This document shows, in pieces, positions 16,677 to 62,594 of a stretch of 64,000 nucleotides of DNA. Origin of the DNA: Bdellovibrionota bacterium (GTDB taxonomy: Bacteria; Bdellovibrionota_C; UBA2361; JAFLCA01). Location: the NCBI GenBank assembly GCA_044347745.1, contig JBIKUD010000010.1, positions 11,741 through 75,740 on the forward strand, written 5' to 3'. Under the pieces are notes generated by a model, which saw only the letters and a program-made list of their open reading frames with translations, was not told where the DNA came from and did not search any database. Both the position numbers and the translations under genes were made by a program. Numbering within the stretch: position 1 is the first letter of the stretch; each line of letters opens with the position of its first letter.

Positions 16677-18059
16677 ATGCAAGATCAACCGCAACCACCA
16701 ACAGCAAACGACAACCAGCCCAACGCGGCGGAAACTTCGCGTAACCCAAACACCTCAACCACTCGCACCAATAGCTTAGCTCCCCGCTTAAAAACAAATC
16801 CGCTCGATTTGTGGAACCAACTTAGCCAAGATTTGCGTCAGTCCATTCAGACTGAGGTAGCTGAAGTAACTGTTGGATTTCTCGCCAAAGATGTGTGCGT
16901 GTATTATGAAGGGTTTGGACTTCTCATTCCTCACATTGAGTCACAACAGCGAGTCCGGATTCAAGAGAACCAGGTCTTTGTGCAGACCGAGACCTTTCGC
17001 ACTTTACGATTTGAAAAGTGCGGAGAACTAGTTGCCTATCACCGTGAAAAATTTGGGTCTATTGTTGAATTAAAAGATCTTATCGAACCCACACTGAAAC
17101 GCCTGCACGCCTCCCCTTTTAGCGATAGAGACCTGAGGCAAGTGCTCCGTGGGCTGTTTCAGGCGCTTCGTATAGAAGTGGTAAGCCACGGAGCAAGTAG
17201 GTTGCTGCCGCGCCTTGGCGATTTTTTTGCGCTACATAATAGACAAGGCACCTCGGTTATCGACTGGTTTGCCGGTGCAGATATCTTTATTCGTTCCGCC
17301 TACCGTCAGACACTTTTTGTAGAGCCAACCCGCTTATCGGCTAGACCAATTTTACAGTCTTCCTGGGAACTGCTTGAAGCCGCCTACGGCCCACCTGCCT
17401 GCACCCTCGAGCTTGACCTGCTTGAACAGCTTACTGAACTGGGATACGACGCCGAGGCGCTACAAACAGGCCTCGCCGATAAGGACCGAAAGATTCCGGT
17501 TGGCGTCTATTTGCGCCTCGAAGCCCCTCAAGCGCTTATTTATTGTACCGATGGCCTGCGTCGCTTAGCTGCTCAAGCAGGTGCTATTCGCTCTGGCTCT
17601 GAGCTGGTGTTCCAACTTGCACTCGCAAACCAGGACCATGATGGCGTAGTTCCTGATTGGCCGTTACGCGCATTAGCTTTGGGGTGGATTCTTATTCAAA
17701 CCACCAAATCAAAGTCCATTAAAGTTGGCGCCGCTATTGCCTGCGACCAACCACTTATTCCAAATGGCGATTCCGAACTTCACTGTGTGCTTGCCACCCA
17801 ATTTGCGGCTGTAAAAACAGAACAGCTAAGCGCCGATGGCGCGTTTTCGTACGTTAATTTAATCGGGATTTGCCGCAACGAAGCCGAAGTTGCAGCCCTC
17901 CATTCTGTAGATCATCTGTTTAAACTTCTTGAGTATAAAGAGCTGGATCAGTGCACAAAACCAAACCGCTCATCTATTGTGGCTCGAACATATTTTGAAC
18001 TGCCTGTAAAAGACTGCGGACAAAACGGGGCCTGTACAGCTCCCAAATCTGAGCCCTAA
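16677..18059 (+). CDS. hypothetical protein (460 aa) with a Pro/Gln/Asn/Thr-rich N-terminus
   Basis: Clear ORF with no confident family. The C-terminal half is vaguely SUFU-like, which I do not treat as more than speculation. Flanked by the 35 bp repeats. Confidence 0.55.
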   Translation: MQDQPQPPTANDNQPNAAETSRNPNTSTTRTNSLAPRLKTNPLDLWNQLSQDLRQSIQTEVAEVTVGFLAKDVCVYYEGFGLLIPHIESQQRVRIQENQVFVQTETFRTLRFEKCGELVAYHREKFGSIVELKDLIEPTLKRLHASPFSDRDLRQVLRGLFQALRIEVVSHGASRLLPRLGDFFALHNRQGTSVIDWFAGADIFIRSAYRQTLFVEPTRLSARPILQSSWELLEAAYGPPACTLELDLLEQLTELGYDAEALQTGLADKDRKIPVGVYLRLEAPQALIYCTDGLRRLAAQAGAIRSGSELVFQLALANQDHDGVVPDWPLRALALGWILIQTTKSKSIKVGAAIACDQPLIPNGDSELHCVLATQFAAVKTEQLSADGAFSYVNLIGICRNEAEVAALHSVDHLFKLLEYKELDQCTKPNRSSIVARTYFELPVKDCGQNGACTAPKSEP

Positions 18060-26628: not shown

Positions 26629-28731
26629 TTAATTGTCGGATGGGATGATATGAGCAAGCTCATCTAATTCAGCTTCAGCAAGTTCGCGCTCGCGGCTTAA
26701 CTCGCGGCGTTTAATGTCTTTTGCTTTGGCATCAGAGCTCATTAATATTTTTAGGTATTCTTCTTCCCGCCGTGTTTCTTCAATTTGATTCAAAGTTTTA
26801 TCACGTTTAAAAGTAAGCTCGGCGATTGATTTGTCAGAATCAGAGACTTCGCTTTCTATAGCGCGCTTTACTTCCTCGGTAAGCTCTCTTTGGCGCTCCT
26901 TACGGGCCTTGGCAAGCTCGACTACTTTCTTTTCTTGCGCTGAATCTGAAGGATTATAACGCAGCACCTCTGCTTCCTTAAGATATGACCAAGTGGCCAG
27001 CTCAAATACTTCTTTTTTCTCTTTTACTGCTGAAGAGGCCACAGCTACTTCTGCGGCTAAATTGATAGGATCGGTGGCTGCAAGGCGCTTACGACGTCCA
27101 TACCAGACTGCAAGCTTGCGGGTAGCCACATCAATTTGAGCTCGTAAGTCTTCCTGCTCTGTCTCTAATAATTGTTTATGCTCTCGTACAGAACGTAAGT
27201 TATCGGCTAGACGCGCAGAGAGCGGCTTATCAAAGGCTGATATTTTTTCGTCAAGCTCAGCTACTACTTGTTCAAGCGCATTTTTACGGCGCAATACTCG
27301 GCTATATTCGTCCGGCGCAAGTCCAAGCTCATGATTGGATTCTGGGGCGGTTGATGGCGCTTCTGCTTGAACAGGGCTGCCGCCTTGGTAAGTAAAACCA
27401 ATTCCAGCTACAGAGGTCTTGCGCTCTATAAGGTCAGATTTTACTTCCGGCTCAAGCCGTGCAACCTGAGCTTGCGGCACTTCAGGAGCTGTTATTTCTA
27501 CCGGCACCCGATGTCCGCCAGCTCCAAGCATACGTGGAGCATAAAACCCGCCCAGAAAACCTATAAGAGTGACTACGGTGAAGGCAGCCCCAAGCACGAT
27601 AGCACGAGAGAGCGGTTGACCTCTAAGGTGTGCCCAGCGTTCGCTTAAAGAAGCGGGCTGCACTGTTGAGCCAGGGTGGCCAGGGTTCAGTGTGGCGGCA
27701 GCTTCATGCGCCGGCTGCCCTTTGACTGCTTCGCTCTCACCCGCATTCGAAGCTTGGTGGACATTGGTGATTTCAATTTTTGGCTCAAGGACAACGGATT
27801 CGTTAACCAGGACTCCTTCAAGAGACTTATTATCTTCTACTCGAGGCTCAGCAAATAAATCTTCGCTGTGCTCAGCGCTTTGATGCCCCGGGCTCGTATG
27901 CAGCGGTGGATGAGTAATAGGCTCATCCATCGGCGCGCCCTCAAAGGCATCAGGTCCCACGGGGAACTCTTCGCCCACTTCCACTGCAATAACGGTGATA
28001 TTGTCCGTTCCGCCGCGCTCATTGGCAAGTTGCACCAACTTTTGCACGGCAACATCGATGTAGTTGTCTTGCATGACAGCCGCAATTTCGTGATCATGCA
28101 CCAAATTATACAGTCCGTCCGAGCAAAGCACATACATATCGCCACGCGCAGGACCATCGCCGCTAAGCCAGCAGTCAACTTCAATTGAAGGTCCTGGCCC
28201 AAGTGAACGGGTAAGCATATGCGAAACAGGGTGATTATCCGCTTGTTCTGGGCTAATTGCCCCAGATTTTAAAAGCTCCTGAACCAAGGTGTGATCGGTA
28301 GTAAGCTGGGCAATGTGGTTGTCACGTATGCGGTAGGCTCGTGAGTCGCCTACGCTCGAAATAAGGAGCTTGGTGCCGACAAAACCAATTCCCACGTAAG
28401 TGGTGCCCATGCCGGCTAGCGAAGGATCTCCTGAGCCCTTTTCGAAAATTTCTGCGTTTGCATGTTCGACTGCCGAGCAAATAGCAGCAGAGTTAAGTTC
28501 TGTTCTATCTTCGAGGCACTCTTTAATTACATTAACTGCAAGGTTTGAGGCGATACCTCCGCCCTTCACGCCGCCCATACCGTCGGCAACGACGTAGAGC
28601 TTAAAATGCTCTGACTCTATGACTCCAAAAGAATCTTGGTTCTCTTCGCGCCGCAAACCAATGTCGGTAGCAGCTGCATGTTTCACTGCAGCTAGTGGAG
28701 AGGGTGTTGCGTTTACCGTATCGGTCGTCAT
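26629..28731 (-). CDS. membrane-anchored PP2C-family Ser/Thr phosphatase with a long C-terminal coiled-coil domain
   Basis: The N-terminal 250 aa has the PP2C motifs (RREENQDSF, VADGMGG, GTT, DG..N, GGTDNITVI). A Pro-rich linker follows, then one TM helix (AIVLGAAFTVVTLIGFLGGFY), then 300 aa of highly charged heptad-like sequence. Confidence 0.8.
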   Translation of the reverse strand: MTTDTVNATPSPLAAVKHAAATDIGLRREENQDSFGVIESEHFKLYVVADGMGGVKGGGIASNLAVNVIKECLEDRTELNSAAICSAVEHANAEIFEKGSGDPSLAGMGTTYVGIGFVGTKLLISSVGDSRAYRIRDNHIAQLTTDHTLVQELLKSGAISPEQADNHPVSHMLTRSLGPGPSIEVDCWLSGDGPARGDMYVLCSDGLYNLVHDHEIAAVMQDNYIDVAVQKLVQLANERGGTDNITVIAVEVGEEFPVGPDAFEGAPMDEPITHPPLHTSPGHQSAEHSEDLFAEPRVEDNKSLEGVLVNESVVLEPKIEITNVHQASNAGESEAVKGQPAHEAAATLNPGHPGSTVQPASLSERWAHLRGQPLSRAIVLGAAFTVVTLIGFLGGFYAPRMLGAGGHRVPVEITAPEVPQAQVARLEPEVKSDLIERKTSVAGIGFTYQGGSPVQAEAPSTAPESNHELGLAPDEYSRVLRRKNALEQVVAELDEKISAFDKPLSARLADNLRSVREHKQLLETEQEDLRAQIDVATRKLAVWYGRRKRLAATDPINLAAEVAVASSAVKEKKEVFELATWSYLKEAEVLRYNPSDSAQEKKVVELAKARKERQRELTEEVKRAIESEVSDSDKSIAELTFKRDKTLNQIEETRREEEYLKILMSSDAKAKDIKRRELSRERELAEAELDELAHIIPSDN

Positions 28732-28934: not shown

Positions 28935-29987
28935 TTATTTTACTACTCGTAAAAATGGGTCCCCCTGCACATAACTTTCACGCTTCAGCTGGCCAATGAG
29001 CCGCTCAGCCTGCTGCTTATTTTGCTCTGGTCCAACAATAACTCGGAAGTATTCTTCGCCTCGAACTCGCGCCGATTCGATTAACACCGGGAACCCAGAC
29101 GACTTAAGTTTTGACGCGAGTGCACTTGCATCCTGCATTTTTCGTGGCGCTGCAATTTGTGCAAACCATCCTGCTGGCAAGGTTTGGCGAACAAGAGACT
29201 TATCTGCTGCTTTTGCTGTGATCGCGGACTTTTCAGGCGCAGCGTTAGCTACCTTGGCTACTTCTGTCTTTTTTGTTGCGGGTTTAACAATTGCGGCAGG
29301 TTTTTCTGCTACTTTTTGTGAAGGCTTTAATTCTTTAAGCTCAACTTTCGCTATGCCCGTATCGGTTTTCTTGGCAGCTTGGATAGTTTCAGGGCGATTT
29401 ACAGATGCGCTGCGCTCTTGTTTAGGTTGAGGCGCTATTTCACCAAGATTCTTAGCAAACTTACTTGGTTCTTCTACGCTTGGCTCAATTGGGAACAAAC
29501 TATCCATATCAAGCCCCGCTGTCTCGGAGGACTCTACTGTCTTCGGTTGAAGCGGTGCTTGTTCCTTGACTGCGACCTCATCCCCTAAAGGAGCAACTTC
29601 AGTTGATTTAATAGCCCCCAAAATAGGCTCTTCCTTACGGGAGCTTGCCAATGCCGGTACTGGGGCGCTCAGGCGCGCATATACATCTGTTTCATTGTGG
29701 GAGGCACTATTTCCCTCGCCTTCAGCAACAGGGAACCGAGGACTATGGGCGAGGCTTCTTTCGAGTGCAGCCTCAAACCCAACACCGCGACCAGACGAGA
29801 ACCCAACATAGAACGCGCAGGCTATTGAGCCTGTGACCATTCCGAGTAATACCACGACCTGGGCAACACCAAGCCGCAACTCCCATTGTTGCAGATTCTT
29901 TTTATTCATAGTGGCTAACGGTTTTACCGTAGGATGAGTGCGCGGGCTAGGATTAACAGCCATAAAATTCTCTGAGGCGTAAACCAA
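28935..29987 (-). CDS. SPOR-domain (peptidoglycan-binding, septal) protein
   Basis: C-terminus GWFAQIAAPRKMQDASALASKLKSSGFPVLIES..YFRVIVGPEQNKQQAERLIGQLK is SPOR-like. N-terminal TM helix. The middle is a Pro/Ala/Lys-rich linker. The real start may be the internal MNKKNL, about 29909. Confidence 0.7.
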   Translation of the reverse strand: MVYASENFMAVNPSPRTHPTVKPLATMNKKNLQQWELRLGVAQVVVLLGMVTGSIACAFYVGFSSGRGVGFEAALERSLAHSPRFPVAEGEGNSASHNETDVYARLSAPVPALASSRKEEPILGAIKSTEVAPLGDEVAVKEQAPLQPKTVESSETAGLDMDSLFPIEPSVEEPSKFAKNLGEIAPQPKQERSASVNRPETIQAAKKTDTGIAKVELKELKPSQKVAEKPAAIVKPATKKTEVAKVANAAPEKSAITAKAADKSLVRQTLPAGWFAQIAAPRKMQDASALASKLKSSGFPVLIESARVRGEEYFRVIVGPEQNKQQAERLIGQLKRESYVQGDPFLRVVK

Positions 29988-30030: not shown

Positions 30031-31248
30031 TTAGACCTTCTGAACGCCGGCAATATATCTGCCGGCTATGATATCCGATAGCAGATCTAAAACACCAGTA
30101 AGAATTTTGATTTCTGCTGCGCCACAAGTTCCTGTGGCAAGCTGGGCTCTAAAGTGAGGCTGATTACAAAGCGCATTGGTGCGCTCGAGTATTTCGGTCA
30201 AAACCGAAATAAACTCGGCTACCTGACCAAGGCGGCCAGCTTGCCGCTCAAAGGAATAAAAATATCTCAGTCGTAGCAGCAGTTTTAACCAGTCTTCATT
30301 AGGCAAAACATCTGCCCCCGCGCGCGAGGTCTGAGATAAAAGCGTTCTGAGACGCTGAGCGGTCAATGCTGCATATTGTATGGGGTTAGCTTTTTCTTTA
30401 AGTTGCGGCACCATCAAATCTACATCTGTCCCCGCCACCTCCGAACAAAGATATATAAGGGTCTCGGCAGGCACACGAGCGGCGAGTTGGGTAAGCGAAG
30501 CGAGTTCTTTTTGCGTTAGCTGCCAATTGGCCCAGGCTGCCCCGACGTAACTTAAGCGAATGTGCCCATTGGCTTCGCCACGCGGAAACAGGGCCTTAAA
30601 CTGAGGAGCTGGAATAGTTGCGGGCAACAACCACAAAACCCTCATTTCATCTGGATGATCTTCTTTTTGAAGTTCTGCTTGCACTCCCTCAACCAGCGAT
30701 GAAACCGTCTGGAGGGGCCAGGAAAGGACCGAGTCTATAAGGTTCACAAGGGCTTGGGGCTGAAAACTAAGCGGAATGAGGCCCTTGCCAACGAGAACCA
30801 GCTGCACCTTGGCTCCGTAAAATTGGGCGCAAAATGCTTGAAGATAGGCACGCAGCACAAGCCTTAGATGCGCGGCCCGTTCGGTTTCCTCTGTACAGGC
30901 CGGCACCAACACGCTCACTCGCTTTTCAGGCAAGGGTACTACGGTATCGAGCAAGGGGTTAGAATGAAGCAACTCGGCAGCCGATAGTCGCGCATTTAAA
31001 AATCCTCTGGTGGGCTCCAGCGTGGGTCCGCCGTCTTGCTCCCAAAGCGCTTTAATTTCAAGCGCCAGCGCCTCGGGCTTTTGAAGCACTTTGCGGGCCA
31101 GACGTGTGGGTGCGTCGGTGCCAATGTGCCCGAGTGTCAAATCGTACAGGGGCACAAATTCAACTGCTGAAATGCTGCTTGGCCAGTTCTTACTAAAAAT
31201 TTCATTTAGTTTATGAGAGAAACTTTGAATACTCACATCCATCTTCAA
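30031..31248 (-). CDS. arginyl-tRNA-synthetase-like protein lacking the catalytic core (ArgRS N-domain + DALR anticodon-binding domain)
   Basis: The N-terminus ends PTRGFLNARLS, matching the ArgRS additional-domain end (GPGFINIFL). The C-terminus NPIQYAALTAQRLRTLLSQ matches the DALR motif (vQYahARicsilrka). It is only 405 aa and the HIGH/KMSKS core is absent. Confidence 0.45.
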   Translation of the reverse strand: MKMDVSIQSFSHKLNEIFSKNWPSSISAVEFVPLYDLTLGHIGTDAPTRLARKVLQKPEALALEIKALWEQDGGPTLEPTRGFLNARLSAAELLHSNPLLDTVVPLPEKRVSVLVPACTEETERAAHLRLVLRAYLQAFCAQFYGAKVQLVLVGKGLIPLSFQPQALVNLIDSVLSWPLQTVSSLVEGVQAELQKEDHPDEMRVLWLLPATIPAPQFKALFPRGEANGHIRLSYVGAAWANWQLTQKELASLTQLAARVPAETLIYLCSEVAGTDVDLMVPQLKEKANPIQYAALTAQRLRTLLSQTSRAGADVLPNEDWLKLLLRLRYFYSFERQAGRLGQVAEFISVLTEILERTNALCNQPHFRAQLATGTCGAAEIKILTGVLDLLSDIIAGRYIAGVQKV

Positions 31249-31287
31249 AAACTACCTCTCGAAAACACGCTTAGCCGTAAGTGGTTG

Positions 31288-32334
31288 TTAACAGCGGGCC
31301 AGATCTAACGCTTCACGCAGCGCGGCCACGCGTTCGCTCGTCACCACTTCCCCACACGAGATGCAGGCTCTCAGTTCGTCAGCATATACCCGCAGCGTTT
31401 GTTTTTTAAATCCCAGCGGGGCTAATGTTTCTGCCCAAGTTTGCACCCCGTCAGCGCTTACCAAACACTGCAAAAACAGCCAATATCGCACTTCTGCGCT
31501 TACATGAAGAGCCGCCGCCTTTAGTCTAAAAAAACGTGCGAGCACCGTTTTAGAAGACTCAAGCTCAAGGCGATCAATTGCATCGGTTACTTTCCAAGCC
31601 TGAAGCTGTGTGAGAATTGCCCAAGGGTCCCGCTCTTCCATTACCTTTCGCAGTTCAGTAAGAAAACGCTGCACCGATATCACTTCAAGCATTTTTGCGT
31701 CTACGGCTGCACCCACAAGCTGCTCGGTAATGGTGTCTGGTTTGGCGTCAAGGCGAATCATGTAACGCGCTAATCTGAGAATACGTGTTGGATCATCGAC
31801 AAAACTACGCGAATGAAGCACTCGTAAGGTCTTTGAGCGTAAATCTTGAATTCCTGCATGTAAGTCAAAGCAGCGTTTTTCTAATTCTTGCTGCTGACAA
31901 TGTGTAAGCTCCATTAGTTCAAGAACATGTTTCACTTCAAGCGCAATGGCATTCACACTAAAGTCACGTCGCCCTAAATCCTCTTCAAGCTTGGATGGAG
32001 TCACCTCTGGCAAAGCTCCGGGAGTAAGGTAACGTTCAGTGCGGGCACTAGCGAAATCTATCTCGCGCACATGAGCGAATAGGCTCGGTTGCTCAATTTT
32101 GGCAGTGATAAAGGCAGTAAACTTTCTAAGTGAACCGCCACTAATTTTTTGAAGTTCCTCGGCAAACTCAATCGCGTTGCCTTCAACAACAAAATCGACA
32201 TCTTCGTCGAGCGCCGGTAAACCCCGCAATAAATCGCGAACAACGCCGCCGACTAAAAAGAGGCGCTGCCCCCTTTTAGCGGCAAAATCGGCCACGGTTT
32301 GAAATAATGTTTGATACGTTTTGCTAATTATCAT
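31288..32334 (-). CDS. tRNA nucleotidyltransferase / poly(A) polymerase family protein (head domain)
   Basis: LFLVGGVVRDLLRG..DEDVDFVV and RRDFSVNAIA are the diagnostic motifs of the poly(A)-polymerase-like head domain. 348 aa. It lies 39 nt upstream of the ArgRS-like gene on the same strand. Confidence 0.7.
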   Translation of the reverse strand: MIISKTYQTLFQTVADFAAKRGQRLFLVGGVVRDLLRGLPALDEDVDFVVEGNAIEFAEELQKISGGSLRKFTAFITAKIEQPSLFAHVREIDFASARTERYLTPGALPEVTPSKLEEDLGRRDFSVNAIALEVKHVLELMELTHCQQQELEKRCFDLHAGIQDLRSKTLRVLHSRSFVDDPTRILRLARYMIRLDAKPDTITEQLVGAAVDAKMLEVISVQRFLTELRKVMEERDPWAILTQLQAWKVTDAIDRLELESSKTVLARFFRLKAAALHVSAEVRYWLFLQCLVSADGVQTWAETLAPLGFKKQTLRVYADELRACISCGEVVTSERVAALREALDLARC

Positions 32335-32521: not shown

Positions 32522-34453
32522 ATGCGCACAGTAAAGGGAAAACTAAAAGACGAAAGCGGCAATATGGTGCTTTCCCTTGGAGCACTTAGCCTGATGCTGC
32601 TTTTTGCCATGTTTGCGGTCAACACCGCCTACTACTACTCATACCAACAAAAACTAAACTCAATTGCCAACTCAATTGCCGCACACGCAGGAAATTATTT
32701 GCCAAATCCGTCTTTGTCTGCACAAGCAGCAGTTAATGCATTCGAGCTTTTAAAAAATGATTTTGTTACGGGAGAACCACATTTTGGAACGGCTTTGGAA
32801 TTACAAGTGTCGTTTGATTACTACGAGGTTGGGGCTGGAAATGTGGTTACTCTTTCAAGAACTACGCTGGCAACGCCAGAAAGTTCGTGGCCGGTGGCAC
32901 TTCCTATAAAGTCGCTCACCGTCAAAGTTTCGGGCCGATATACGGCAAATTTACTAAACTTTAACTCGACCCTTGGCGCAGCATTGCCGTCAGTCCAAGT
33001 AATTGGGCAGGCAAGCACGCAGCTTATTCCCACTGATGTTGTTTTGGTAATCGAAAATTCTAATTCAATAATCTCTCCGCTCGCCGATGAAAGTGCCTCT
33101 CTTTCAAAAGCTTTTAGTCTTTGGAAGGACGATTTTCCCGGACGAGGTGTGAGTGAATCAGAAGTCCCGTACGGGTCCACTCTTGAAGTATCCCAAAGTA
33201 AAGCCCGGCTCCGCGAACGCCAGTGTTTTGGCAAAACAGCTTATGAAATAAAGCGCGCGGCTTTACAGGCATTTGACTATTTAAGTTCCGTAGGCACCTA
33301 TCGCGTTGGAGTAATTCACACAACCGATTTAATTGGCGAAGTGCCAACGGCTACTATCAATATTACGCCAGATTCCTATGGGCGTGTGTATCAGCGCAGA
33401 AGATTTTCATCGTACCAAGCGGGAGCCGCCTCTGACACACCAAGTACCTACAATGAAGTTATGTATAACCCTGGGGCTAATTCTTCGTATGGCACATTTG
33501 AGTATCCTGAAACACGCTGTGCGGCGCTTACAGCTGAAACTGCCTTTCGGGTTCCCGCTCATCCGTTTGCCTCATATGCAACGCTGAATAACTTTGCAAG
33601 TAACTCTTTAAAAACGAATCTTGCCGGAGAACTGTCATGCGATGGTGAAGTGGACACCGACAATTGCCCCAGTGCAGGACACCTCACGTATGACGCATCC
33701 GGAATTCTGATTCCACGAGAACTTATTTGGATTAAAAATTCTGGCTTTGATTTTGAGACTGGTTTGCCAAATCCCTTGTACGATTACACCAAACTTGAGT
33801 TTCCTATTTTACGCGCCATAGACATGCTGCGAACCGCACCTGCTCGTGCCGACAATTTACCCGTGCGGCGCCAAATAGTGCTGGTTTTTACAGATGGTTG
33901 GGAAACGCCTTACCTTTATGAAACGGGTGTGAATCTTGACGGTGCAACTCAGAATATGACCTTTAGGCGTGCTCCAGCCATAGCAGAGGGCTCGGCCGAA
34001 TTTTCTGAAAAAGTATACAGCCTCGATTACGCTGACTCTGCTTCAAATTTTGATTTTTATTGCGCCACCCACGCGGACAACCTCATTCAACAAAGCACTC
34101 AACCAGATGAAAGCTCTGGATTTACCCCAGAATCAAACAATTTAGGCATTAAACTTGGGGTGCTGGTGCACGGCGCAAAACAAACTGGGTACGGCGCCAC
34201 CCTTAAAGACCCAAGCTTTCGATTGTTGGCACTTCGCGGTCATGGCAACAAAGATAAAAATGACCTTGGCACTTTTCGTAGCGAGTGCAACACCCGTTGG
34301 ACCGAAGGGCGAGGGAGATTTTTTATGGAAATGACCAGCCCAGTGCTGGGAGAGGATGCCATGAGTGCAAGCCAAATGTACTACGAACAAATTACCCCGC
34401 AGGCACTCAGAAGCTTTTTTGATTCGGAGCTTATTCAGACCAATGCAGATTAG
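32522..34453 (+). CDS. TadG-like Flp-pilus assembly / pseudopilin protein (643 aa)
   Basis: N-terminus ESGNMVLSLGALSLMLLFAMFAVNTAYYY is the Tad (TadE/G-like) N-terminal domain. It has a VIENSNSI possible MIDAS-like segment. Its stop overlaps the next gene's start. Confidence 0.6.
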   Translation: MRTVKGKLKDESGNMVLSLGALSLMLLFAMFAVNTAYYYSYQQKLNSIANSIAAHAGNYLPNPSLSAQAAVNAFELLKNDFVTGEPHFGTALELQVSFDYYEVGAGNVVTLSRTTLATPESSWPVALPIKSLTVKVSGRYTANLLNFNSTLGAALPSVQVIGQASTQLIPTDVVLVIENSNSIISPLADESASLSKAFSLWKDDFPGRGVSESEVPYGSTLEVSQSKARLRERQCFGKTAYEIKRAALQAFDYLSSVGTYRVGVIHTTDLIGEVPTATINITPDSYGRVYQRRRFSSYQAGAASDTPSTYNEVMYNPGANSSYGTFEYPETRCAALTAETAFRVPAHPFASYATLNNFASNSLKTNLAGELSCDGEVDTDNCPSAGHLTYDASGILIPRELIWIKNSGFDFETGLPNPLYDYTKLEFPILRAIDMLRTAPARADNLPVRRQIVLVFTDGWETPYLYETGVNLDGATQNMTFRRAPAIAEGSAEFSEKVYSLDYADSASNFDFYCATHADNLIQQSTQPDESSGFTPESNNLGIKLGVLVHGAKQTGYGATLKDPSFRLLALRGHGNKDKNDLGTFRSECNTRWTEGRGRFFMEMTSPVLGEDAMSASQMYYEQITPQALRSFFDSELIQTNAD

Positions 34454-37400
34454 AGGCAACACCAAACGGCACACAACGCGCTGCTCTGAAAGGGGCGTCG
34501 CTTTTGTTGAGCTTGCGCTGACGCTTCCTATTCTTGTCTCAGTGGTGTTAGCCGTAGGATACCTATACAGCTATGTCAGAACCTATCAAATTGTAAAGTC
34601 GGCGGCACTTGCTGCAGCCACCTACGGCGCCAGTGGAGAGCTAAGCTCAGTAAGCAATTCAGGCACAAGTTTTCTTGAGTGGACTCATCTAAATGGTGGA
34701 ACTCCGCCCTTTCGGCCAGTTGCAATTCGGCGCCACGAACAATGCCGGGGGCTTTCGGCTGAAGCAGCAGAAACCTGCATCCAAACCGAAATAACCGCCG
34801 AACGGTACTACGCCCAAGTGTGGAGCGACTATGCAAGTTCTGTTTCCTCCCCGCTGGCAGAAGCCAGCCCCCTGCCCTTTAAGCTGTATGAGAAATCAAG
34901 CGCAACTCCCGGATACATGCTTACGACGGTGCTTCCGGTAATTGGAATCGAAAGGGCTTGTTATGAACCATATAACGAAACCGCCAGCACTATTACGGGC
35001 ACATCTCGCTTTTATAACGCCTCTATTGGTGCCGCCAACTGCACCCATGTAAAGCCCATGTATTGGCAAAGTCCAGTTCAGGCAGACTTTGATGGTGACC
35101 GGCGCGAAGACATCGTGGTGTTTAGACCCCAAGGCACGAGTACCACGTGGGGCGCAAAAGCAGACAAGTCAGAGGTAGATTTTGTCGTTTTTTACTCAGG
35201 TTCAGGATATAGCCAGGTTGGAGGCAGAGGCTATTTTAACTTGGCTACTTTGCCAGGAAGCGCCACCGCAGGTGTCACTCCAAATGATATTCCCATAGTC
35301 GCTGACTACGATCGTGACGGCCTTGCTGACTATGGTGTTTTCGATCCCCGAACGGGTGACTACCGTATTGCGTTTTCGCTCTCAAATTACTTAGTAATTG
35401 GCAGCGGCAATATGGGCGTAAGCGATCCCTCTGGGCAGCAAGGACTTATTGCCGTTCCAGGACATTACACAAGCACTACTAATCTTCAGCTCCTCGTGGT
35501 TCGAACTGCCTCAACTACTGCGGCCGGACGATATGACATGTTTATTTCGAACGTCATTAATCCAACCTTCGAGCAGCTCATGGATGATGACCTCACGTAC
35601 TCCTTACCAGCGGGACATGCCGTTTCTGGTAACGAAGTAAGTTCAGCGAATCTTTACAAAGTCAAACCAGCCCCAGGCACTGTCTCAGTGCCAGCTTTTG
35701 CCGACTATGATGATGATGGAATAACCGAACTGGGGTGGCTTAGCTGGTATGGGGGCAACATGGCTCAGCAAATTGCTGGGCGTGTGATTGGGCAGCGCTC
35801 AGCAACATTAGCTAAATTCTTTGAGACTGACAGCAACCCTGATACTACTCCCATGAACACTCGCATGAATCCATACGATATGGATTTTGATAGCGCCGGA
35901 AACTTACTCTACACAGATCCAATTGATGGCAGACTTTGGAAACTTGATGCTGATGCACTGGGAGGAATTTCGACACCAGATACAAGTTCCTCGCACATGA
36001 TAATGCCCACTGCTGATTATCAGGCAGCCCGTACGCTTGTCCCGAATCCGGAAGCCAAATTTGCACCGGAGAATGTCTATGATGTCACTCGTGATAATCG
36101 CGCGCTGAATCCTGCTGATACAGATGCTCCAGTTACAGCCAGCGAGAGGCAACTAAGAACGCCAAGAAAATTTTTTGTCGCAACGGATTACGACAAAGCA
36201 TTATATATCGCAGATCACCGCAACATGCGGATTCTGAGGCTAGAAAGCGGAGAGTCAGGAATAGATTCAACGTCTACTAGCTCTGTGATTCTGGGAAGCA
36301 GCTCATGTACGAGCGGAGGCTGTTCTGACCTTGTTGATGACAAGTCTCCCAGCCTCTATTCAATTTGGGGTGATGCCAATGGTCAATATACTATCAACCC
36401 CTCAGCAATCGAACTTGTTCCCGACACTGAGAATAAGAATCGATATTTTGTGGCGTTTTCCTCAGGCAATGCTGTGTACCTTATAACTCACGAAAACGAG
36501 GAGGGAGGGCCGCTGGGTACTGACTCTGATCGTATCTGGAAAGTTGCGGGTAAACACAGCACTGCACCAAGCTACACGGCGGGCGATACAAACGCAAAAT
36601 ACACTGACGACCTTATTGCTGACCAGGCACGCAATTCAGCCCTCTGCCCGATTATTGATCTTAAGTATCACAGCGGTATCGGCGGCGGGGTGCTGCTCAT
36701 GGCAGCATCCTGCAGCTTGCCTCGCATGCATGGAGAAACTGGCTTAACTTTTCAATCGGTCGGGGGAATTTATACCCTAACTCCCGCATTCAACTCGGAC
36801 AAAGTCTATCGCTTCCATGATCCATTAGCTGAGGATCTGGACAACTCAATTGCGCTAAGCGTCGGCACCATGTGGGTGTATCCGTGCACCCAAGGTGTGT
36901 GCGCGGGGCCACAAGCCTCTGGCGCCGGAAATTACCAGCGCAAAATAAACGTGATGGCCAATGCCAATGCAATTGATTTAGTCAATCCTGTTGATATGGA
37001 AGTTGGGCCTCGCGGAGAGGTGTATTTTATTGACCAATGGAATGAAGATACGATTTACGATACCGAAAGATTTCCTGAAAGCCCTAATGTTCAAGACCGC
37101 CTCCATCGAAATGGAGTCTGGATTTGGGATGCAGCCACGAATACAAACTCAATTCTGCCATTTACCAATAACTTTTTTTATTCAGATGGGCTGCTTCCCG
37201 TCTGGGGCCCCGACTGGTACTCGCCTACTCGCCTTGGAGATACCGCAAGCATTCAGTGGAATATTCTTGCCCATAAAGCGCCGCTTAAGAATGTTCCGGT
37301 TCCAGCGACTGCGGGAATTACAATCTCCGGTAATACAGTATACACCTCAGTTCCATTCGTACGTCCGCCATCCGACTACTCCGAAAGTCATCCACTTTAC

Positions 37401-39314
37401 ACAGAACCTAAGCAACTCGGTATGATTTACTCGATTGAATTGGATAGAGACGGCGATGGAACTCCAGACTCTGCCGATACGGATCTCGATGGTGATGGGG
37501 TGTTAAATACCTTAGACACCAGCCCACGTAGCATGCATTGCCCAGAAATTTACGGTACCACCAATTCTGGAGCTTGCAGGGCCCAAGAGGAACTCGGCAT
37601 ACCAAGACAAACATTTTTTAAAATTACAGGAGCCGATATCGCCTTTGATGCAAGCGAAGCTGGGGCTCCTACGGGCAGAAATTATGGCGAATTTTTATTC
37701 GTAAACTCAGTGGCAGAATGTGGCCCAGAAGCAGATTGCGCATCGGAGTCGCTCGGGTTTACTGCCGCGCAGGTCAAACCAGAAGTATGGGCAACTTTAT
37801 TTAACTGGGGTGATGACTTTGATTTTGGTGGAACAGATGCATGCACTTCAGATAATTCTGTTTCAACGACGAGCCCTTATTATGGTTGCATCGAAACAAG
37901 TAATGGACCTATCGCCATGCCTCAGCCTCTACACGCTATGGTTGGATGGGATGTACCGATTCTTACGTATACATTTGAGTCGTTCCCAGGCGGAGGCCAT
38001 CTAAACTCTACAACTCCGGGCACAGAGCGGCGTCCAGATTCAAACCTCTTTAAATTTCCATTTATTCTGTCGTCGCTAAGACCAAAAGAAAACGGAATTA
38101 AAAGCCCGAAGCGTGTACCTCTCTATGACGTAAAAGACCCGCGCATCACAAAATCAGGGCTCCTCTGCCGCGACTATGAAGGCGAGATCTATACGACGGG
38201 TCCAGGCCCTGCAGCTGCGGCGCCGTTCAAATTAAATTTTGACAATTATTTGGGCAATTATTTTTACTCAGGCTTTGACCCACATCTTGATAGCACCCTT
38301 GATAATGATTTTGCGAATTACGCTGTAGATTGCGCCTACGACCAAACCGCAAGTTTCCCCGGCACCGATGCGCGTAAGCAAGCGGTTGAAGGAATTGTGC
38401 TGCAGCTTGACCATGATGATACTGACGGCAAAGAAGGCGGCGTAAGTGGACAGTGGCCATACCAATGGGCTGCCGGCATCCCCGCTGACCCCGAGAATAT
38501 TAATCATTTCCTGTTTATTGACCATGATGGAAATGGCGTCAGGAATCCAAGCTATCTGATTCCCCCTCAAGCCTCTGGCGACTCAGCTTTTAGCGGCGCA
38601 AGTATGGCCAATCCATTTATGGTGGTGGGCTTAGGACTACAAAATTCTGATGACAAATACGATTCACGGACGATTAACTACATCGATAAGCTACGAGAGC
38701 CTTTTAATTCTGTGAATCTTTGGAACAATCTTGGATATGGAAGTGATTATTTGATGACAGGGCCATTTGCGAGAATCAATGCCGTCACCCAAGATTCAAT
38801 TAATTTACTATTCGATAAGGGCTGGGCCGGTACCAATCTACGCGACAACGCCCTATTTGTAGCTCTTGATTTTGAGCCCTTTATTCCCAAAGATTTTGAA
38901 ATTGGAAGCAGACAAGACGCAGGGGCTGGCCTCTTTACAAACTACACAAAAAGCACCCGGTTTCGTAGGAATGCCGATGACGATATTCCATCGGCCTTGG
39001 TGGCTGCCCGGAATGTGCTTAAAATTGCCTACGGTGTAGGAGACGCGGAGTTTACCTCCGATGAGGCAGATTTCGCCTCTGATGAGGACATTAAAGCTTA
39101 CATCAATTTATCTAAGGACGGAGCGGCGTGCACTGGTGATCTCAATTCAAGCGCTGCGCTAAACTGCGACTCGGTTGAGGTGAGATATAAATCGAGTTAT
39201 CTCGGATTTGATATAGTAGTTTCTAGTAAAGTACCTCTTAATCAGGGGTACCTTAGAAATTACCAAGAAGTGTGTGATCCAAATGGCGGGCCGGAGGGTT
39301 TTGATTGTAACTAA
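34443..39314 (+). CDS. giant (about 1620 aa) TadE-N-terminal protein with FG-GAP-like, NHL-like and Ca-binding (thrombospondin-type-3-like) repeats; candidate pilus-associated adhesin
   Basis: From the ATG at 34443 (overlapping the upstream stop) the N-terminus reads ERGVAFVELALTLPILVSVVLAVGYL, a canonical TadE motif. FG-GAP-like motifs: DFDGDRREDIVVF, ADYDRDGLADYGVFDP, ADYDDDGITELGW. NHL-like motifs: GNLLYTDPIDGRLWKLD, YIADHRNMRILRLE, VYFIDQWNEDTIYD. D-x-D-G runs DRDGDGTPDSADTDLDGDGVLNTLD. The listed start at 34365 would overlap the previous gene in another frame. Confidence 0.65.
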   Translation: MQIRGNTKRHTTRCSERGVAFVELALTLPILVSVVLAVGYLYSYVRTYQIVKSAALAAATYGASGELSSVSNSGTSFLEWTHLNGGTPPFRPVAIRRHEQCRGLSAEAAETCIQTEITAERYYAQVWSDYASSVSSPLAEASPLPFKLYEKSSATPGYMLTTVLPVIGIERACYEPYNETASTITGTSRFYNASIGAANCTHVKPMYWQSPVQADFDGDRREDIVVFRPQGTSTTWGAKADKSEVDFVVFYSGSGYSQVGGRGYFNLATLPGSATAGVTPNDIPIVADYDRDGLADYGVFDPRTGDYRIAFSLSNYLVIGSGNMGVSDPSGQQGLIAVPGHYTSTTNLQLLVVRTASTTAAGRYDMFISNVINPTFEQLMDDDLTYSLPAGHAVSGNEVSSANLYKVKPAPGTVSVPAFADYDDDGITELGWLSWYGGNMAQQIAGRVIGQRSATLAKFFETDSNPDTTPMNTRMNPYDMDFDSAGNLLYTDPIDGRLWKLDADALGGISTPDTSSSHMIMPTADYQAARTLVPNPEAKFAPENVYDVTRDNRALNPADTDAPVTASERQLRTPRKFFVATDYDKALYIADHRNMRILRLESGESGIDSTSTSSVILGSSSCTSGGCSDLVDDKSPSLYSIWGDANGQYTINPSAIELVPDTENKNRYFVAFSSGNAVYLITHENEEGGPLGTDSDRIWKVAGKHSTAPSYTAGDTNAKYTDDLIADQARNSALCPIIDLKYHSGIGGGVLLMAASCSLPRMHGETGLTFQSVGGIYTLTPAFNSDKVYRFHDPLAEDLDNSIALSVGTMWVYPCTQGVCAGPQASGAGNYQRKINVMANANAIDLVNPVDMEVGPRGEVYFIDQWNEDTIYDTERFPESPNVQDRLHRNGVWIWDAATNTNSILPFTNNFFYSDGLLPVWGPDWYSPTRLGDTASIQWNILAHKAPLKNVPVPATAGITISGNTVYTSVPFVRPPSDYSESHPLYTEPKQLGMIYSIELDRDGDGTPDSADTDLDGDGVLNTLDTSPRSMHCPEIYGTTNSGACRAQEELGIPRQTFFKITGADIAFDASEAGAPTGRNYGEFLFVNSVAECGPEADCASESLGFTAAQVKPEVWATLFNWGDDFDFGGTDACTSDNSVSTTSPYYGCIETSNGPIAMPQPLHAMVGWDVPILTYTFESFPGGGHLNSTTPGTERRPDSNLFKFPFILSSLRPKENGIKSPKRVPLYDVKDPRITKSGLLCRDYEGEIYTTGPGPAAAAPFKLNFDNYLGNYFYSGFDPHLDSTLDNDFANYAVDCAYDQTASFPGTDARKQAVEGIVLQLDHDDTDGKEGGVSGQWPYQWAAGIPADPENINHFLFIDHDGNGVRNPSYLIPPQASGDSAFSGASMANPFMVVGLGLQNSDDKYDSRTINYIDKLREPFNSVNLWNNLGYGSDYLMTGPFARINAVTQDSINLLFDKGWAGTNLRDNALFVALDFEPFIPKDFEIGSRQDAGAGLFTNYTKSTRFRRNADDDIPSALVAARNVLKIAYGVGDAEFTSDEADFASDEDIKAYINLSKDGAACTGDLNSSAALNCDSVEVRYKSSYLGFDIVVSSKVPLNQGYLRNYQEVCDPNGGPEGFDCN

Positions 39315-58762: not shown

Positions 58763-61477
58763 CTAACTGCAAGTTGGGCACTGTTTTAATATTTCGCTAA
58801 CGGCGTCCTCCGCCTTATTCATGCGTGCAAAATCAAGTGCCGTTTGCCGAGCTATGTTCTTAATTGAAAGGTCGGCACCTTTCTCTAAAAGAAAACGCAC
58901 TGAAGTTATTTGCTTATTAAGGATAGCGTGCATGAGCGCCGTGTACCCCGACGAGTCTTGAAAATTAATATCTGCGCCAGCTTCAAGCAAATACTTCGCC
59001 GCTTCAATTTGCCCCCTGCTCACTGCTGCGCTTAAGGGTGAAATTCGATATTTTGGATCAATTCGATTGGGCGAGGTTCCCGAAGCAACAGCAGTTTTTA
59101 AATCCTCAATGCGACCAGCGAAGGCAGCAGCTACCATGGCATCCGCGGCCAAGCCCTTTATGGTCTGAATATCTTTCTGAGCAGCTGCAATTTTGCGCTG
59201 AGCTTCTTGCTGTAATGCTTCAAGTTGCAATAAGGCAACTTCAGCTTCGGGACCTTGTGCCTTTACTGAATCACGCACGGACTGGAGAGCTTTATTCTGA
59301 GCTTGCCGCACCAAAGCCAAGTTGTCTTCAAGAATATTCGGATTGAGTAGTGCCTCATGAATTTGCGCACCAAAAGCCAGCGCCTGATTGTCATCGGTGA
59401 TAAGCGCACCTGTTGCCGCATAGGCCTTAAGTGCTTCGCCTTGAAGCGCAATTGCTGCCTCAACTTCAAATTGGGTTAAATCTCGAGTGATCCCAGGCCG
59501 GTTAAATCCGGGAAGCTGAATAGCTTGTGTTGAAGCCTTTGTTTTTTTACCCACCACAATTCCCGTTTGGCTTAGCGGATCGATCCATAAAAACGAGTTG
59601 GGAAATACTTCCGTAAAAGTTTTTACAATAGAGGCATTCAGGTGCGGTGACACAAGCCTAAAGGTCACCCACTGCGCAATGGTGCCTCCCTCGTCTAACT
59701 TTTCGGCGACTAGTTCATAAAACTCTTTAGAGTACAAACTATTTACACCAGCAAAATTTGGCGGCATGGGCTCCAAGGTTACGACATCAAATGTACGCTC
59801 TGTTCTGCGTACAAACGCACGTCCGTCCATCACGGTAGTTTGCACTCTAGGGTCTTCAAGCACGTTATTATTTTTTGGAAACCAATGGGCCAGCTGAAGC
59901 ACCGCTGCATTAAGATCCACTATCTGTAGAGTCTCCGGATTCTCTGCACGCACCGCATCGGCTGTTTGACCGGTACCAAAACAAATGACCAGGGCGCGCT
60001 TTGGGTCAGTATGCAAAAGCATCGGCAAATGCCCCATCCAGCGCATATAGTGACCGAGTTTTAACTCAGTAGCTGCGTGAAACCCGTCGATTATGAGACC
60101 ACGCTCTCCTGTGGGAAATTCGATGGCAGCGATGGCTGAATCTGGTGTCTCTCGGTACTCAAGCAGAGAGTATTGCTCCACACCAAGGCGTCCAACAACC
60201 CGCGTGACGCCAACTCCCGATAATGACCTTAGGGAAATGAACCCGATAACCAGAAATACGCCTAGCAGAATGCGACTCTCGCGACTTTTAGCAGCGAGAC
60301 TAGCGCCAGCCAATAAAATTGCTAAGGCTATTGCAGTGTAAGAAAAACCAAGCACGGGTAAAAATACCCAGGCTGAGGTGATACCACCCAAAGCCGCCCC
60401 GAGGGTATTAATGCTATACACTTGCCCCCAACTCGAGTTGGCAGTTGCCTTATCCAGCAGTCGCGGCAGTACAGCGCCAAGGCATGTGATGGGCACAATG
60501 ACCACCAGCATAATAAGTACAAACCAGGTAAGCTGCACGGGATGTAGCGCCAAATGAGAGACTGAATCGAGGCGCTCTATAAAGGGAGTAGAAACAAGTA
60601 TTCCAATGCCAGCCAACACGAGCAAACGTACGTTTGGGACTTTTTTAAGCAATGGAGACTCTGAAAGCCGAGCACCAAGCGCAAGAGCTACAAGAACAGT
60701 GCACAACATTAAGGCAAATGATTCTGTGGTACTTCTAAAGGCACCTCGAAATGCCCTAAACCATGCAACTTCTAACGAAAGCGTAACAAAGCCCGTCAAG
60801 AAAGCATGCAATAAGGTGACGGAATCTAATGGCTCTCCCGAACCAGACAGATGCCTTGCCACAGGCGCTGGCGTGACTTCCTTATGAAAGCTAAATAAGG
60901 TCAGCAAGAGCGCAGCGGCCGCGTTTATTCCAGACAAGACCAAGCTTGATTGATGAACGCCGAACTGCGGGATTAACCAAAAAGCGACACCGAGACAGCC
61001 AAGTGCTCCACCAAAGGTATTAAGTCCATACAAAAGGGAAATTTGTATCTTTAAAACTGCCGCTAGTCTTCCCAACAATGGCAAGGTCGCGCCCATTAAA
61101 AAGGCTGGCACACCAATAATGGCAACCTGACAAAAAGTATATATAAACGGGGCAATTTGAGGATTTTGGGCAAAAGCCAAAGTGTCGAGCGATGATGCGG
61201 CTTCAAACAAGCTTGAGAGAAAATATCCATTCAGCGCAATGACGCCTTCACAGAGCGCAAAAAAAAGACAAGAAGCTTTTGCGGAAAGCTGCTTGGTCGC
61301 TTTACCAATACAAATTGCACCAGCACCAAACCCAAGCATGGTAGTTGCCAACGTTAAGGCAGCACCCCAAGCTGAAACACCTAACGCTAACCCGCTATGC
61401 AGTTGCCACAGAACTTCCCAGGAGAGGGCGGCAAAACCAGAGAGCAGCACTACGACACTGATAAGTATAGATTTCAA
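58763..61477 (-). CDS. polytopic spermidine-synthase-like (aminopropyltransferase-fold) membrane protein fused to C-terminal ankyrin repeats
   Basis: About 14 TM helices. LVICFGTGQTADAVRAENPETLQIVDLN...DGRAFV resembles the SpeE methyltransferase fold. The C-terminus ALMHAILNKQITSVRFLLEKGADLSIKN and SPLSAAVSRGQIEAAKYLLEAGADINFQD are ankyrin repeats. Confidence 0.7.
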   Translation of the reverse strand: MKSILISVVVLLSGFAALSWEVLWQLHSGLALGVSAWGAALTLATTMLGFGAGAICIGKATKQLSAKASCLFFALCEGVIALNGYFLSSLFEAASSLDTLAFAQNPQIAPFIYTFCQVAIIGVPAFLMGATLPLLGRLAAVLKIQISLLYGLNTFGGALGCLGVAFWLIPQFGVHQSSLVLSGINAAAALLLTLFSFHKEVTPAPVARHLSGSGEPLDSVTLLHAFLTGFVTLSLEVAWFRAFRGAFRSTTESFALMLCTVLVALALGARLSESPLLKKVPNVRLLVLAGIGILVSTPFIERLDSVSHLALHPVQLTWFVLIMLVVIVPITCLGAVLPRLLDKATANSSWGQVYSINTLGAALGGITSAWVFLPVLGFSYTAIALAILLAGASLAAKSRESRILLGVFLVIGFISLRSLSGVGVTRVVGRLGVEQYSLLEYRETPDSAIAAIEFPTGERGLIIDGFHAATELKLGHYMRWMGHLPMLLHTDPKRALVICFGTGQTADAVRAENPETLQIVDLNAAVLQLAHWFPKNNNVLEDPRVQTTVMDGRAFVRRTERTFDVVTLEPMPPNFAGVNSLYSKEFYELVAEKLDEGGTIAQWVTFRLVSPHLNASIVKTFTEVFPNSFLWIDPLSQTGIVVGKKTKASTQAIQLPGFNRPGITRDLTQFEVEAAIALQGEALKAYAATGALITDDNQALAFGAQIHEALLNPNILEDNLALVRQAQNKALQSVRDSVKAQGPEAEVALLQLEALQQEAQRKIAAAQKDIQTIKGLAADAMVAAAFAGRIEDLKTAVASGTSPNRIDPKYRISPLSAAVSRGQIEAAKYLLEAGADINFQDSSGYTALMHAILNKQITSVRFLLEKGADLSIKNIARQTALDFARMNKAEDAVSEILKQCPTCS

Positions 61478-61631: not shown

Positions 61632-62594
61632 TCACAATCCGCTTTTTTGTTCCAGGCTCTTTTTACGAAACAGTAAAATCAGAGCTCCGATGAGCGCCAG
61701 CACATAGGTTTTGGCCCGCAATACTAGGGCAACCGAAAGCGCCTGTGCTGGAGAGGCTCCAGCAAGTTGCAGAAAAAAATAGAAGGCGCCTTCTTGAACT
61801 CCAATACCTTGAGGCGTAAGAGGAATTGCGGCAGTAACTAATATAAGAGGCAGAAGCACAAAAAGATCGAAGAACGGAGGATCTATCCAACCAATCGCAA
61901 TTCCAGTGGCTACGGTATTAACCACGGTAAAAGTATGGAAAAGCAGCGAAAGCAAGATTGTTTGAAAAAGAAGCTGCGGATTTCCTCTCACTAAAATAAA
62001 GCTGCCCTGAATTTTTTTAAGATGTCCTACTAATGGACTGGTAAGAGAAAAACGCTCCAAAAAGCGTATAGGCACCGGACTAAGGCAGGCGAAGATGATG
62101 GTACAAAAACCAAAGGCCATAAGGCACACTGCGCCTTTTATCTCTACGCTAAGCCCCTCTACGCTCCACATACAGGCAAGCGCCAATCCAAGCATGGCCC
62201 CGAGGCCTGTCAGGCGCTCAAGCACTGTTGCAGCGATTGCTTCATGCTGACCAATCTTTTTGCCCACGAGGTAACTTCTGACCAAATCTCCGCCCAAATA
62301 TGACGGCATCAAAAGATTCACGAAGTAGCCCACCAAATAGTAACCACTCAGTTTTACCGCATGCACTGGTTGACCAAGGGCAGAAATAAACATGCCCCAT
62401 TTAAGAGCGCTGATGTACACCAGCAACACAGAAATCAGCATTAGGTAGGTAAAACTTTGCCACGTAAGTAAACTCAGCGCTGCTGCTAGCTCAGAAAAAT
62501 CAACCAGCCAAAAAAGTGCACCGCAAATGAGCAAGGCCAAAAAAATTTTGAGTAGTTTCTTCATTGAAAGGCTCTGAATTCGGCAATCGACCAA
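61632..62594 (-). CDS. UPF0104 / lysyl-PG-synthase-TM-region (flippase-like) family membrane protein
   Basis: 320 aa, about 8 TM. The MKKLLKIFLALLICGALFWLV..DF..L N-terminus is typical of this family. Confidence 0.65.
   Translation of the reverse strand: MVDCRIQSLSMKKLLKIFLALLICGALFWLVDFSELAAALSLLTWQSFTYLMLISVLLVYISALKWGMFISALGQPVHAVKLSGYYLVGYFVNLLMPSYLGGDLVRSYLVGKKIGQHEAIAATVLERLTGLGAMLGLALACMWSVEGLSVEIKGAVCLMAFGFCTIIFACLSPVPIRFLERFSLTSPLVGHLKKIQGSFILVRGNPQLLFQTILLSLLFHTFTVVNTVATGIAIGWIDPPFFDLFVLLPLILVTAAIPLTPQGIGVQEGAFYFFLQLAGASPAQALSVALVLRAKTYVLALIGALILLFRKKSLEQKSGL

Follow-up and report, generated by a model that had tools for sequence, protein, structure and literature searches.

Why does a gene for a shortened relative of arginyl-tRNA synthetase (ArgRS) stand directly behind a gene for a tRNA nucleotidyltransferase (NTase)? 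The question is raised by a stretch of 64,000 nucleotides (nt) from a Bdellovibrionota bacterium (GCA_044347745.1, contig JBIKUD010000010.1, positions 11,741 to 75,740 of the forward strand), referred to here in its full length as the window. The initial annotation of this DNA reported two open reading frames (ORFs) lying 39 nt apart on the same strand, and we verified their coordinates and their location on the minus strand (Table 1). We are highly confident that they encode an ArgRS-derived pseudo-synthetase of 405 amino acids (aa) and a class II NTase, and it is probable that the two proteins act together. We further propose, in a judgment that is evenly balanced, that they are the halves of a single tRNA 3'-end nucleotidyltransferase in which the pseudo-ArgRS is the tRNA-binding subunit.

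Taken alone, the 405-aa protein gives one Pfam match, to Arg_tRNA_synt_N, and this match is sub-threshold (13.9 bits, with the cut-off at 21.5; E=0.085; residues 9-87 on profile positions 6-84 of 85). No match to DALR_1, PF00750, NCBIfam or PDB sequences was found with the single protein, and a word-indexed search with it recovered one homologue at 38% identity. An exhaustive HMMER search started from two sequences yielded 151 cluster representatives, nearly all of them 385-434 aa long. Alignment A2, which holds 101 sequences of the family, is the basis of all counts out of 101 given below. At this level the ancestry is clear. Arg_tRNA_synt_N (PF03485) matches 85 of the 101 members (best E=1.1e-10), the family profile retrieves the ArgRS structures 2zue (E=5.9e-14), 1iq0 (1.1e-10) and eight more, and hhalign, run with the family against aligned canonical ArgRS sequences, returns 96.3% (E=1.8e-9). 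When the family profile was run against a large protein database, it returned mostly canonical 577-aa ArgRS at about 1e-10 and few family members. The ArgRS N-terminal domain read earlier from the window sequence is thus supported for the family, but the window protein by itself stays below threshold.

The predicted fold agrees with this ancestry. AlphaFold run on alignment A2 produced a model with a pLDDT of 93.1 and a pTM of 0.92; the model from a two-sequence alignment reached a pLDDT of 45.7 and was unusable. The top 20 Foldseek matches of the A2 model in the PDB are all ArgRS, and the predicted structure aligns over the entire synthetase chain. The ORF is a folded and selected protein, not a frameshifted or decaying argS. 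A frameshifted argS fragment was considered and rejected on account of the 151 clusters with a common length of about 400 aa and of the compact, high-confidence predicted fold. Divergence within the family is very high, and the ArgRS-like partner evolves much faster than its NTase: median pairwise identity is 21.6% among representatives, as compared with 30-47% identity of the partner NTases to the window NTase (alignment A6). The isoelectric point (pI) and net charge of the proteins had no discriminating value.

The N-terminal part of the protein agrees in its predicted secondary structure with the Add1 domain of ArgRS. Its GFLN motif is aligned to 'GGYLNF' of 1iq0 (GGY77LN79F), and it is well kept, with N85 found in 89 and G82 in 85 of the 101 members and the motif G-F/Y-L-N in 88%. 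In ArgRS this Tyr/Phe-Asn/Gln motif forms the pocket for A20, the major identity nucleotide of tRNAArg (PMC3956977, PMC8318970).

The Rossmann catalytic core had been annotated as missing. HIGH and KMSKS are indeed gone, but a remnant of about 135 residues is left, which is predicted to be a five-stranded alpha/beta fold (strands 110-116, 147-153, 156-158, 201-207 and 230-234). The first beta-alpha-beta unit of the remnant aligns to beta1, the HIGH helix and beta2 of ArgRS, and hhalign puts R129, the sole invariant residue of the family, on the Arg of the ArgRS 'HMGHCR' (H-x-G-H-x-R). The HIGH signature itself is lost: positions 124-127 are variable, PF00750 is matched by none of the 101 members, and the acidic residue at the end of beta1 (D118 in E. 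coli) is replaced by a hydrophobic residue or a gap. The fourth strand ends in 'W-L-x-P' where ArgRS reads 'W-G-A-D-H'. After strand 230-234, P235-x3-W239 leads into the helical domain, and no conserved Lys/Ser/Thr/Arg loop is found in place of KMSKS/MSTR. The arginine-binding residues of E. coli ArgRS are D118, Y313, D317 and R324 (PMC3956977); judging from the lengths and from the end of the hhalign alignment at ArgRS residue 171, the region of the last three appears to have no counterpart in the remnant. Because five strands survive without HIGH, KMSKS or an arginine pocket, the core is hollowed and trimmed by about 175 residues rather than deleted. A protein with this set of motifs cannot be an aminoacylating enzyme. 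The earlier description of an ArgRS paralogue devoid of aminoacylation motifs is therefore borne out by the family profile and by the loss of HIGH and KMSKS.

The C-terminal domain is all-helical in the model. N288 and R299 are spaced by 11 residues, like the N and R of the ArgRS stretch 'N-P-x-x-Y-x-Q-Y-A-H-A-R', and conservation in this domain is high at N288 (98/101), R299 (99/101), N362 (92/101) and R367 (92/101). Further conserved residues of the protein are D277, E285, W291 and P364. A C-terminal DALR domain had been claimed for the window protein, in which Pfam finds none. In its favor, the family profile weakly matches the DALR region of ArgRS (stretch 284-357 to residues 472-545 of 1iq0; 3fnr at E=0.011), and the full-length Foldseek alignment to ArgRS points the same way; DALR_1 (PF05746) reaches E<=0.1 in only three of the 101 members.

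The 348-aa product of the upstream gene is, by its motifs, a class II (Pol-beta type) tRNA nucleotidyltransferase with an intact catalytic apparatus. Of the profiles that the initial annotation had named for the pair, PolyA_pol gave a strong match to this protein (E=1.8e-18), Arg_tRNA_synt_N gave the sub-threshold one described above, and DALR_1 gave none. The Pol-beta head carries motif A (GGxVRD, DxD) and motif B (RRDF), and the neck carries the motif D template (E/D)DxxR, the conserved Asp and Arg of which have the role set out in PMC3925840. Across 25 partnered NTases, G29, G30, R33, D45 and D47 of motif A, R122, R123, D124 and N128 of motif B, and D181 and R184 of motif D are invariant, as is the PGALPxV flexible-loop region. 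The top NCBIfam match is the A-adding tRNA nucleotidyltransferase (2.5e-36). The protein nevertheless clears none of the NCBIfam equivalog cut-offs and is far below all of them (125 bits against 1440 for A-adding; 79.9 against 438.8 and 71.9 against 451 for CCA; 49 against 306 for PcnB).

The nearest solved relatives of the NTase are the A-adding enzyme of A. aeolicus and the CCA-adding enzyme of T. maritima, matched at E~1e-39 by the protein alone and at ~1e-77 as a profile. The match to PAP I, the poly(A) polymerase of E. coli, is far weaker (E~1e-4 alone, ~1e-18 as a profile). Head, neck and body of the partnered-NTase profile align to both the A-adding and the CCA-adding enzyme at E=1e-75 to 1e-77. 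The earlier term "minimal head-domain nucleotidyltransferase" was thus correct in naming a nucleotidyltransferase, but not a minimal head, as head, neck and most of the body align. The Nrn/CBS N-terminal half typical of that A-adding/CCA-adding subfamily (PMC13514080) is absent from the window NTase. Its long flexible loop speaks against the addition of CC alone (PMC3925840), and an A76-only and a full CCA-adding enzyme would look alike in sequence.

Complete body and tail domains are not found in the NTase. The partnered-NTase profile covers residues 18-321 of 441 in 3h37 and 10-318 of 410 in 4wby. The alignment stops about 90-120 residues short of the crystallised chain ends, and the C-terminus is shorter by about 50-85 residues than in the enzymes from T. 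maritima and A. aeolicus. Because the alignment ends early and only about 35 residues of the protein's own remain after it, we judge the tail to be short or absent and read the lost residues as the tail domain. Anchoring at the tRNA elbow has been stated for the tail of the class I enzyme (PMC3925840). The partnered NTases also have in common an insertion of 11-13 aa after motif B, which is absent in the A. aeolicus and T. maritima enzymes. This insertion could be an element that contacts the partner or the tRNA.

Linkage of the two genes was followed over 13 loci: besides the window, 12 related ones were examined (P0001 contig, L002-L006 and L008-L013). In every one of the 13, the ArgRS-like gene has the short NTase gene immediately upstream. 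This is true even of the members that have diverged furthest (E=2.8e-6 and 5.8e-4 in the family search). Start and stop overlap by 4 nt in five loci (L002, L003, L006, L009 and L013), and the genes are 0-11 nt apart in five further ones, the 39 nt of the window being the widest gap. In two cases the genes are fused. In protein P0263 (704 aa), NTase residues 13-317 run end to end into an ArgRS-like part that is complete and lies at 316-703. Protein P0202 (622 aa, found on two contigs) leads from an NTase head and neck only (3-249) into an ArgRS-like part at 267-619. The NTase part of P0202 ends after the neck, and therefore the ArgRS-derived module takes the place of the NTase body and tail. 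The ORFs are intact at every locus examined. This adjacency, overlap and fusion support the link between the two genes that the initial annotation described as an apparent operon.

On this basis we propose a two-subunit, occasionally single-chain, tRNA nucleotidyltransferase. The NTase subunit would supply the chemistry and nucleotide selection. The pseudo-ArgRS would grip the tRNA body, with Add1 at the D-loop and elbow and the helical domain along the anticodon arm, and would present the acceptor end to the NTase. In doing so it would substitute for the lost NTase tail, and in one fusion for the body too. The stripped Rossmann scaffold would join the tRNA-reading parts and would no longer be able to bind ATP or arginine. 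We infer the physical complex, the binding of tRNA and the nucleotide or nucleotides added.

A preference of this enzyme for tRNAArg is plausible because the A20 motif is retained in 88% of the family, although we regard it as doubtful overall. A more specific version, somewhat less likely still, is that the pseudo-ArgRS reads A20 with the Add1 pocket and the anticodon with the helical domain, which would make the pair an isoacceptor-specific builder, repairer or tagger of tRNAArg 3' ends.

Several points weigh against our proposal or parts of it. The A20 asparagine is absent in about 12% of members, including the one of L013 (GCA_038134595.1, 7125..8384), in which 'GYIVCS' replaces the GFLN motif; this speaks against taking the tRNAArg reading strictly. 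Sequence similarity to DALR is weak, and the helical domain has diverged strongly, which leaves the tRNAArg preference uncertain. The acceptor end of tRNA is engaged by ArgRS as well as by class II NTases, which bears on whether both proteins could bind one tRNA at once. The missing NTase residues are called a tail from alignment lengths and not from structure. The family as a whole has diverged strongly, strict synteny may in part be explained by phylogenetic inertia within one lineage, and the ArgRS-like gene may simply occupy the ancestral argS site.

This last point leads to the alternative that survives best, even if we consider it unlikely, which is that the two genes are neighbors by inheritance and have no joint function. 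The ArgRS-like gene would have arisen at an old argS locus after another argS took over, and its product would be a stand-alone pseudo-synthetase, either a sensor or sequestering factor for tRNAArg or a regulator acting with the SPOR and PP2C proteins encoded nearby. The NTase would then be an ordinary A-adding or CCA-adding enzyme. A further locus, L007 (5001..8154), is in line with such a history, as a canonical 577-aa argS from another lineage is followed there by a 253-aa gene of unknown function, a SPOR gene, nagZ, a peptidase gene and scpAB, so that the SPOR gene likewise lies close downstream of argS, two genes on. Pairs of argS and a SPOR gene are common in Proteobacteria. From this one example and that general pattern, adjacency of the ArgRS-like and SPOR genes may mark the ancestral argS site. 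In addition, the conserved block mutS-amidase-NTase-ArgRS-like-SPOR-PP2C-purH-purD is kept as a whole, and gene order alone is therefore not specific to the pair. Inheritance of position does not, however, account well for two independent gene fusions and five 4-nt overlaps, nor for a shortened C-terminus shared by all partnered NTases, which calls for a compensating partner. The pair also persists where its flanks are rearranged: in L013 the upstream flank rpoC..dcd replaces mutS-amidase and the PP2C gene is inverted, and the 419-aa neighbor of the NTase is still a family member (99.65%).

Less probable is an action of the pair on RNA other than mature-type tRNA, such as a tRNA-like element, tRNA fragments or the 3' ends of mRNA or sRNA, with tailing or tagging for decay as the outcome and the ArgRS-derived protein as a generic RNA-binding adaptor. 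Class II NTases do include poly(A) polymerases with equal head and neck motifs, and the ArgRS-like family has drifted far from ArgRS. [quoted passage not shown]

A toxin-antitoxin or anti-phage module, in which the NTase would modify tRNA 3' ends like MenT, is very improbable. The initial annotation had raised a toxin-related role, and NTase toxins that target tRNA exist, but the window NTase is of the PolyA_pol class II and not of the AbiEii/DUF1814 type, PADLOC gave no match for it and for its partner only a 15-bit Csm2 match (E=0.0087) that is not meaningful, and the genes lie in a vertically inherited housekeeping block, stable over 13 loci and without mobile-element features. Just as improbable is a functionless, decaying argS relic, as might be suspected from the loss of all catalytic motifs and the very high divergence, in view of the 151 clusters of narrow length range, one invariant and several >90% conserved residues, an alignment signal sufficient for the high-confidence model, and ORFs intact in every locus.

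Comparison with known systems helps to place the two-subunit enzyme that we propose. The ArgRS-like protein shares with ArgRS (class Ia; 2zue, 1iq0, 5b63, 4oby) the Add1 domain with its G-[FY]-[LI]-N A20-pocket motif, the first Rossmann beta-alpha-beta unit with the Arg after HIGH, a helical C-terminal domain whose N...R pair resembles the motif of the first DALR helix, and the overall domain order. It differs from ArgRS in being about 175 residues shorter and in having no HIGH, no KMSKS/MSTR loop, no conserved acidic residue at the D118 position, no insertion domains and no PF00750 match. The NTase resembles the A. aeolicus and T. maritima enzymes in motifs A, B and D and in the PGALPxV loop region, and differs from them in its constant pairing or fusion with the ArgRS-like protein.

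Both parts of the pair come from known superfamilies, and the recycling of aminoacyl-tRNA synthetase paralogues into other roles is an established theme, reviewed in PMC9437257. HisZ, which is a paralogue of HisRS and the regulatory subunit of ATP phosphoribosyltransferase, is similar in that aminoacylation has been lost and the protein apparently serves an enzyme encoded next to it. HisZ, however, keeps the catalytic-domain fold, has no anticodon-binding domain and acts in metabolism, whereas the ArgRS-like protein retains tRNA-binding domains and has an RNA enzyme as its partner. Another relevant case is the beta subunit of bacterial GlyRS, in which a DALR-type anticodon-binding domain and body- and tail-like domains related to class II CCA-adding enzymes are found in one polypeptide. 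In contrast to our pair, and comparing by description only, GlyRS beta assists an alpha subunit that carries out class II aminoacylation, and it contains neither a Pol-beta head nor Add1. In the literature that we searched, neither an ArgRS-derived paralogue nor a synthetase-like partner of a CCA-adding or A-adding enzyme is described, in agreement with the earlier remark that this pairing was not known to be characterised. A 2022 review of synthetase duplications and synthetase-like proteins names none for ArgRS (PMC9437257).

The pair belongs to an uncultured Bdellovibrionota/Oligoflexia lineage. Family members were found in an Oligoflexia metagenome-assembled genome (MAG; MBX7143806.1, GCA_019694465.1), in an 'uncultured Bdellovibrionales' MAG and in GCA_038134595.1. 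The MAGs GCA_019694465.1, GCA_038134595.1 and CAZFXN01 contain both genes of the pair. Of two genome scans with usable conserved-stretch patterns, one recovered a single genome, a Bdellovibrionales MAG, among 185,579 species-representative genomes, and the other recovered none; by these patterns, species-representative genomes all but lack the family. Canonical argS should be present elsewhere in genomes with the pair, because we know of no organism that makes Arg-tRNA without ArgRS.

The features of the locus are collected in Table 1. The ArgRS-like ORF has two candidate starts, a TTG at 31248 and an ATG at 31242 (M3, two codons on), the latter being the start kept in 88 of 101 homologues. 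No convincing terminator was found in the 39-nt spacer by a promoter and terminator scan, which was uninformative, with 14 terminator-like sites observed against 8.2 expected. The window, at about 48% GC, is ordinary chromosomal DNA. It contains no tRNA gene, Rfam match, argS or second PolyA_pol gene within its 64 kb, and tRNA genes and Rfam elements were likewise not found in nine related loci.

Table 1. Coordinates in the window of the NTase gene, the ArgRS-like gene and the features discussed in the text.
Feature	Position	Strand	Remarks
Short NTase gene	31288..32334	-	348 aa, ATG start
NTase motif A, G29-G-V-V-R-D34, with catalytic carboxylates D45 and D47	32194..32250	-	read from sequence
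NTase motif B, R122-R-D-F-S-V-N-A129	31948..31971	-	
Insertion of the partnered NTases between motifs B and C	about 31867..31935		residues ~134-156
NTase motif D, D180-D-P-T-R184	31783..31797	-	class II protein template for CTP/ATP selection
Spacer between NTase and ArgRS-like genes	31249..31287	-	39 nt
Shine-Dalgarno-like GAGAGG in spacer	31255-31260	-	6 nt before TTG of ArgRS-like ORF
ArgRS-like gene (pseudo-synthetase)	30031..31248	-	405 aa; coordinates include stop codon
Add1-like N-terminal domain, residues 1-105	30934..31248	-	D-loop/A20-reading domain of ArgRS
G82-F83-L84-N85	30994..31005	-	aligned to A20 motif, Tyr77/Asn79 of T. thermophilus ArgRS
Stripped Rossmann remnant, residues ~108-245	30514..30927	-	~135 aa; no HIGH, KMSKS or arginine pocket
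R129, sole invariant residue of the family	30862-30864	-	101/101 members
All-helical C-terminal domain, residues 246-405, DALR-like	30034..30513	-	weak profile matches and Foldseek
N288...R299 motif	30352-30387	-	
SPOR-domain gene, directly downstream of ArgRS-like gene	28935..29987	-	Pfam SPOR 1.8e-12

Downstream of the ArgRS-like gene, the SPOR gene, the gene for a 700-aa PP2C phosphatase, purH and purD follow on the same strand. In the related loci with a downstream gene on the contig, the SPOR gene always follows the ArgRS-like gene, except at the fusion locus L004, for which no SPOR match is recorded in the 334-aa gene that comes next. We treat the SPOR gene as conserved context. The PP2C phosphatase (26629..28731, minus strand) is Stp1/IreP-like (NCBIfam 2e-70) and is extended at its C-terminus by about 450 aa, which contain an apparent membrane segment as well as a coiled-coil-like region; its gene is kept 3' of the SPOR gene in most related loci. 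Upstream of the NTase gene, two divergently transcribed genes for giant proteins of unknown function precede an Amidase_3 gene and mutS. They encode a 643-aa protein without Pfam match (32522..34453, plus strand) and a 1649-aa protein with only a TadE-like N-terminus (34365..39314, plus strand). A pair of similar size (619-668 and 1623-1639 aa) is found at the same position in the P0001 contig, L002, L005 and L009, and the pair is thus conserved.

Other genes of the window are more distant. A 904-aa protein (58763..61477, minus strand) joins a spermidine-synthase-like domain to C-terminal ankyrin repeats, an unusual combination in bacteria. A 460-aa protein (16677..18059, plus strand) has a match to SUFU (Suppressor of fused; 1.7e-08). 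Between 60001 and 64000, the AT skew climbs steeply to +0.19 to +0.24; elsewhere in the window it ranges from roughly -0.12 to +0.08. An LPG_synthase_TM gene (61632..62594) lies in this region, together with a 460-aa gene without Pfam match and the end of the 904-aa gene.

The analysis defines a previously unannotated protein family, whose members are labelled 'hypothetical protein' by NCBI and JGI. Pfam and NCBIfam annotation misses it, and its sub-threshold ArgRS match could mislead. If the tRNAArg-specific reading were true, the pair would be a dedicated enzyme controlling how much chargeable tRNAArg the cell has, and it would be the first nucleotidyltransferase with substrate choice delegated to a synthetase-derived specificity subunit. 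More generally, the pair could show how a tRNA enzyme has been rebuilt from modules in nature, a synthetase without activity providing the hold on tRNA and another superfamily the catalytic head.

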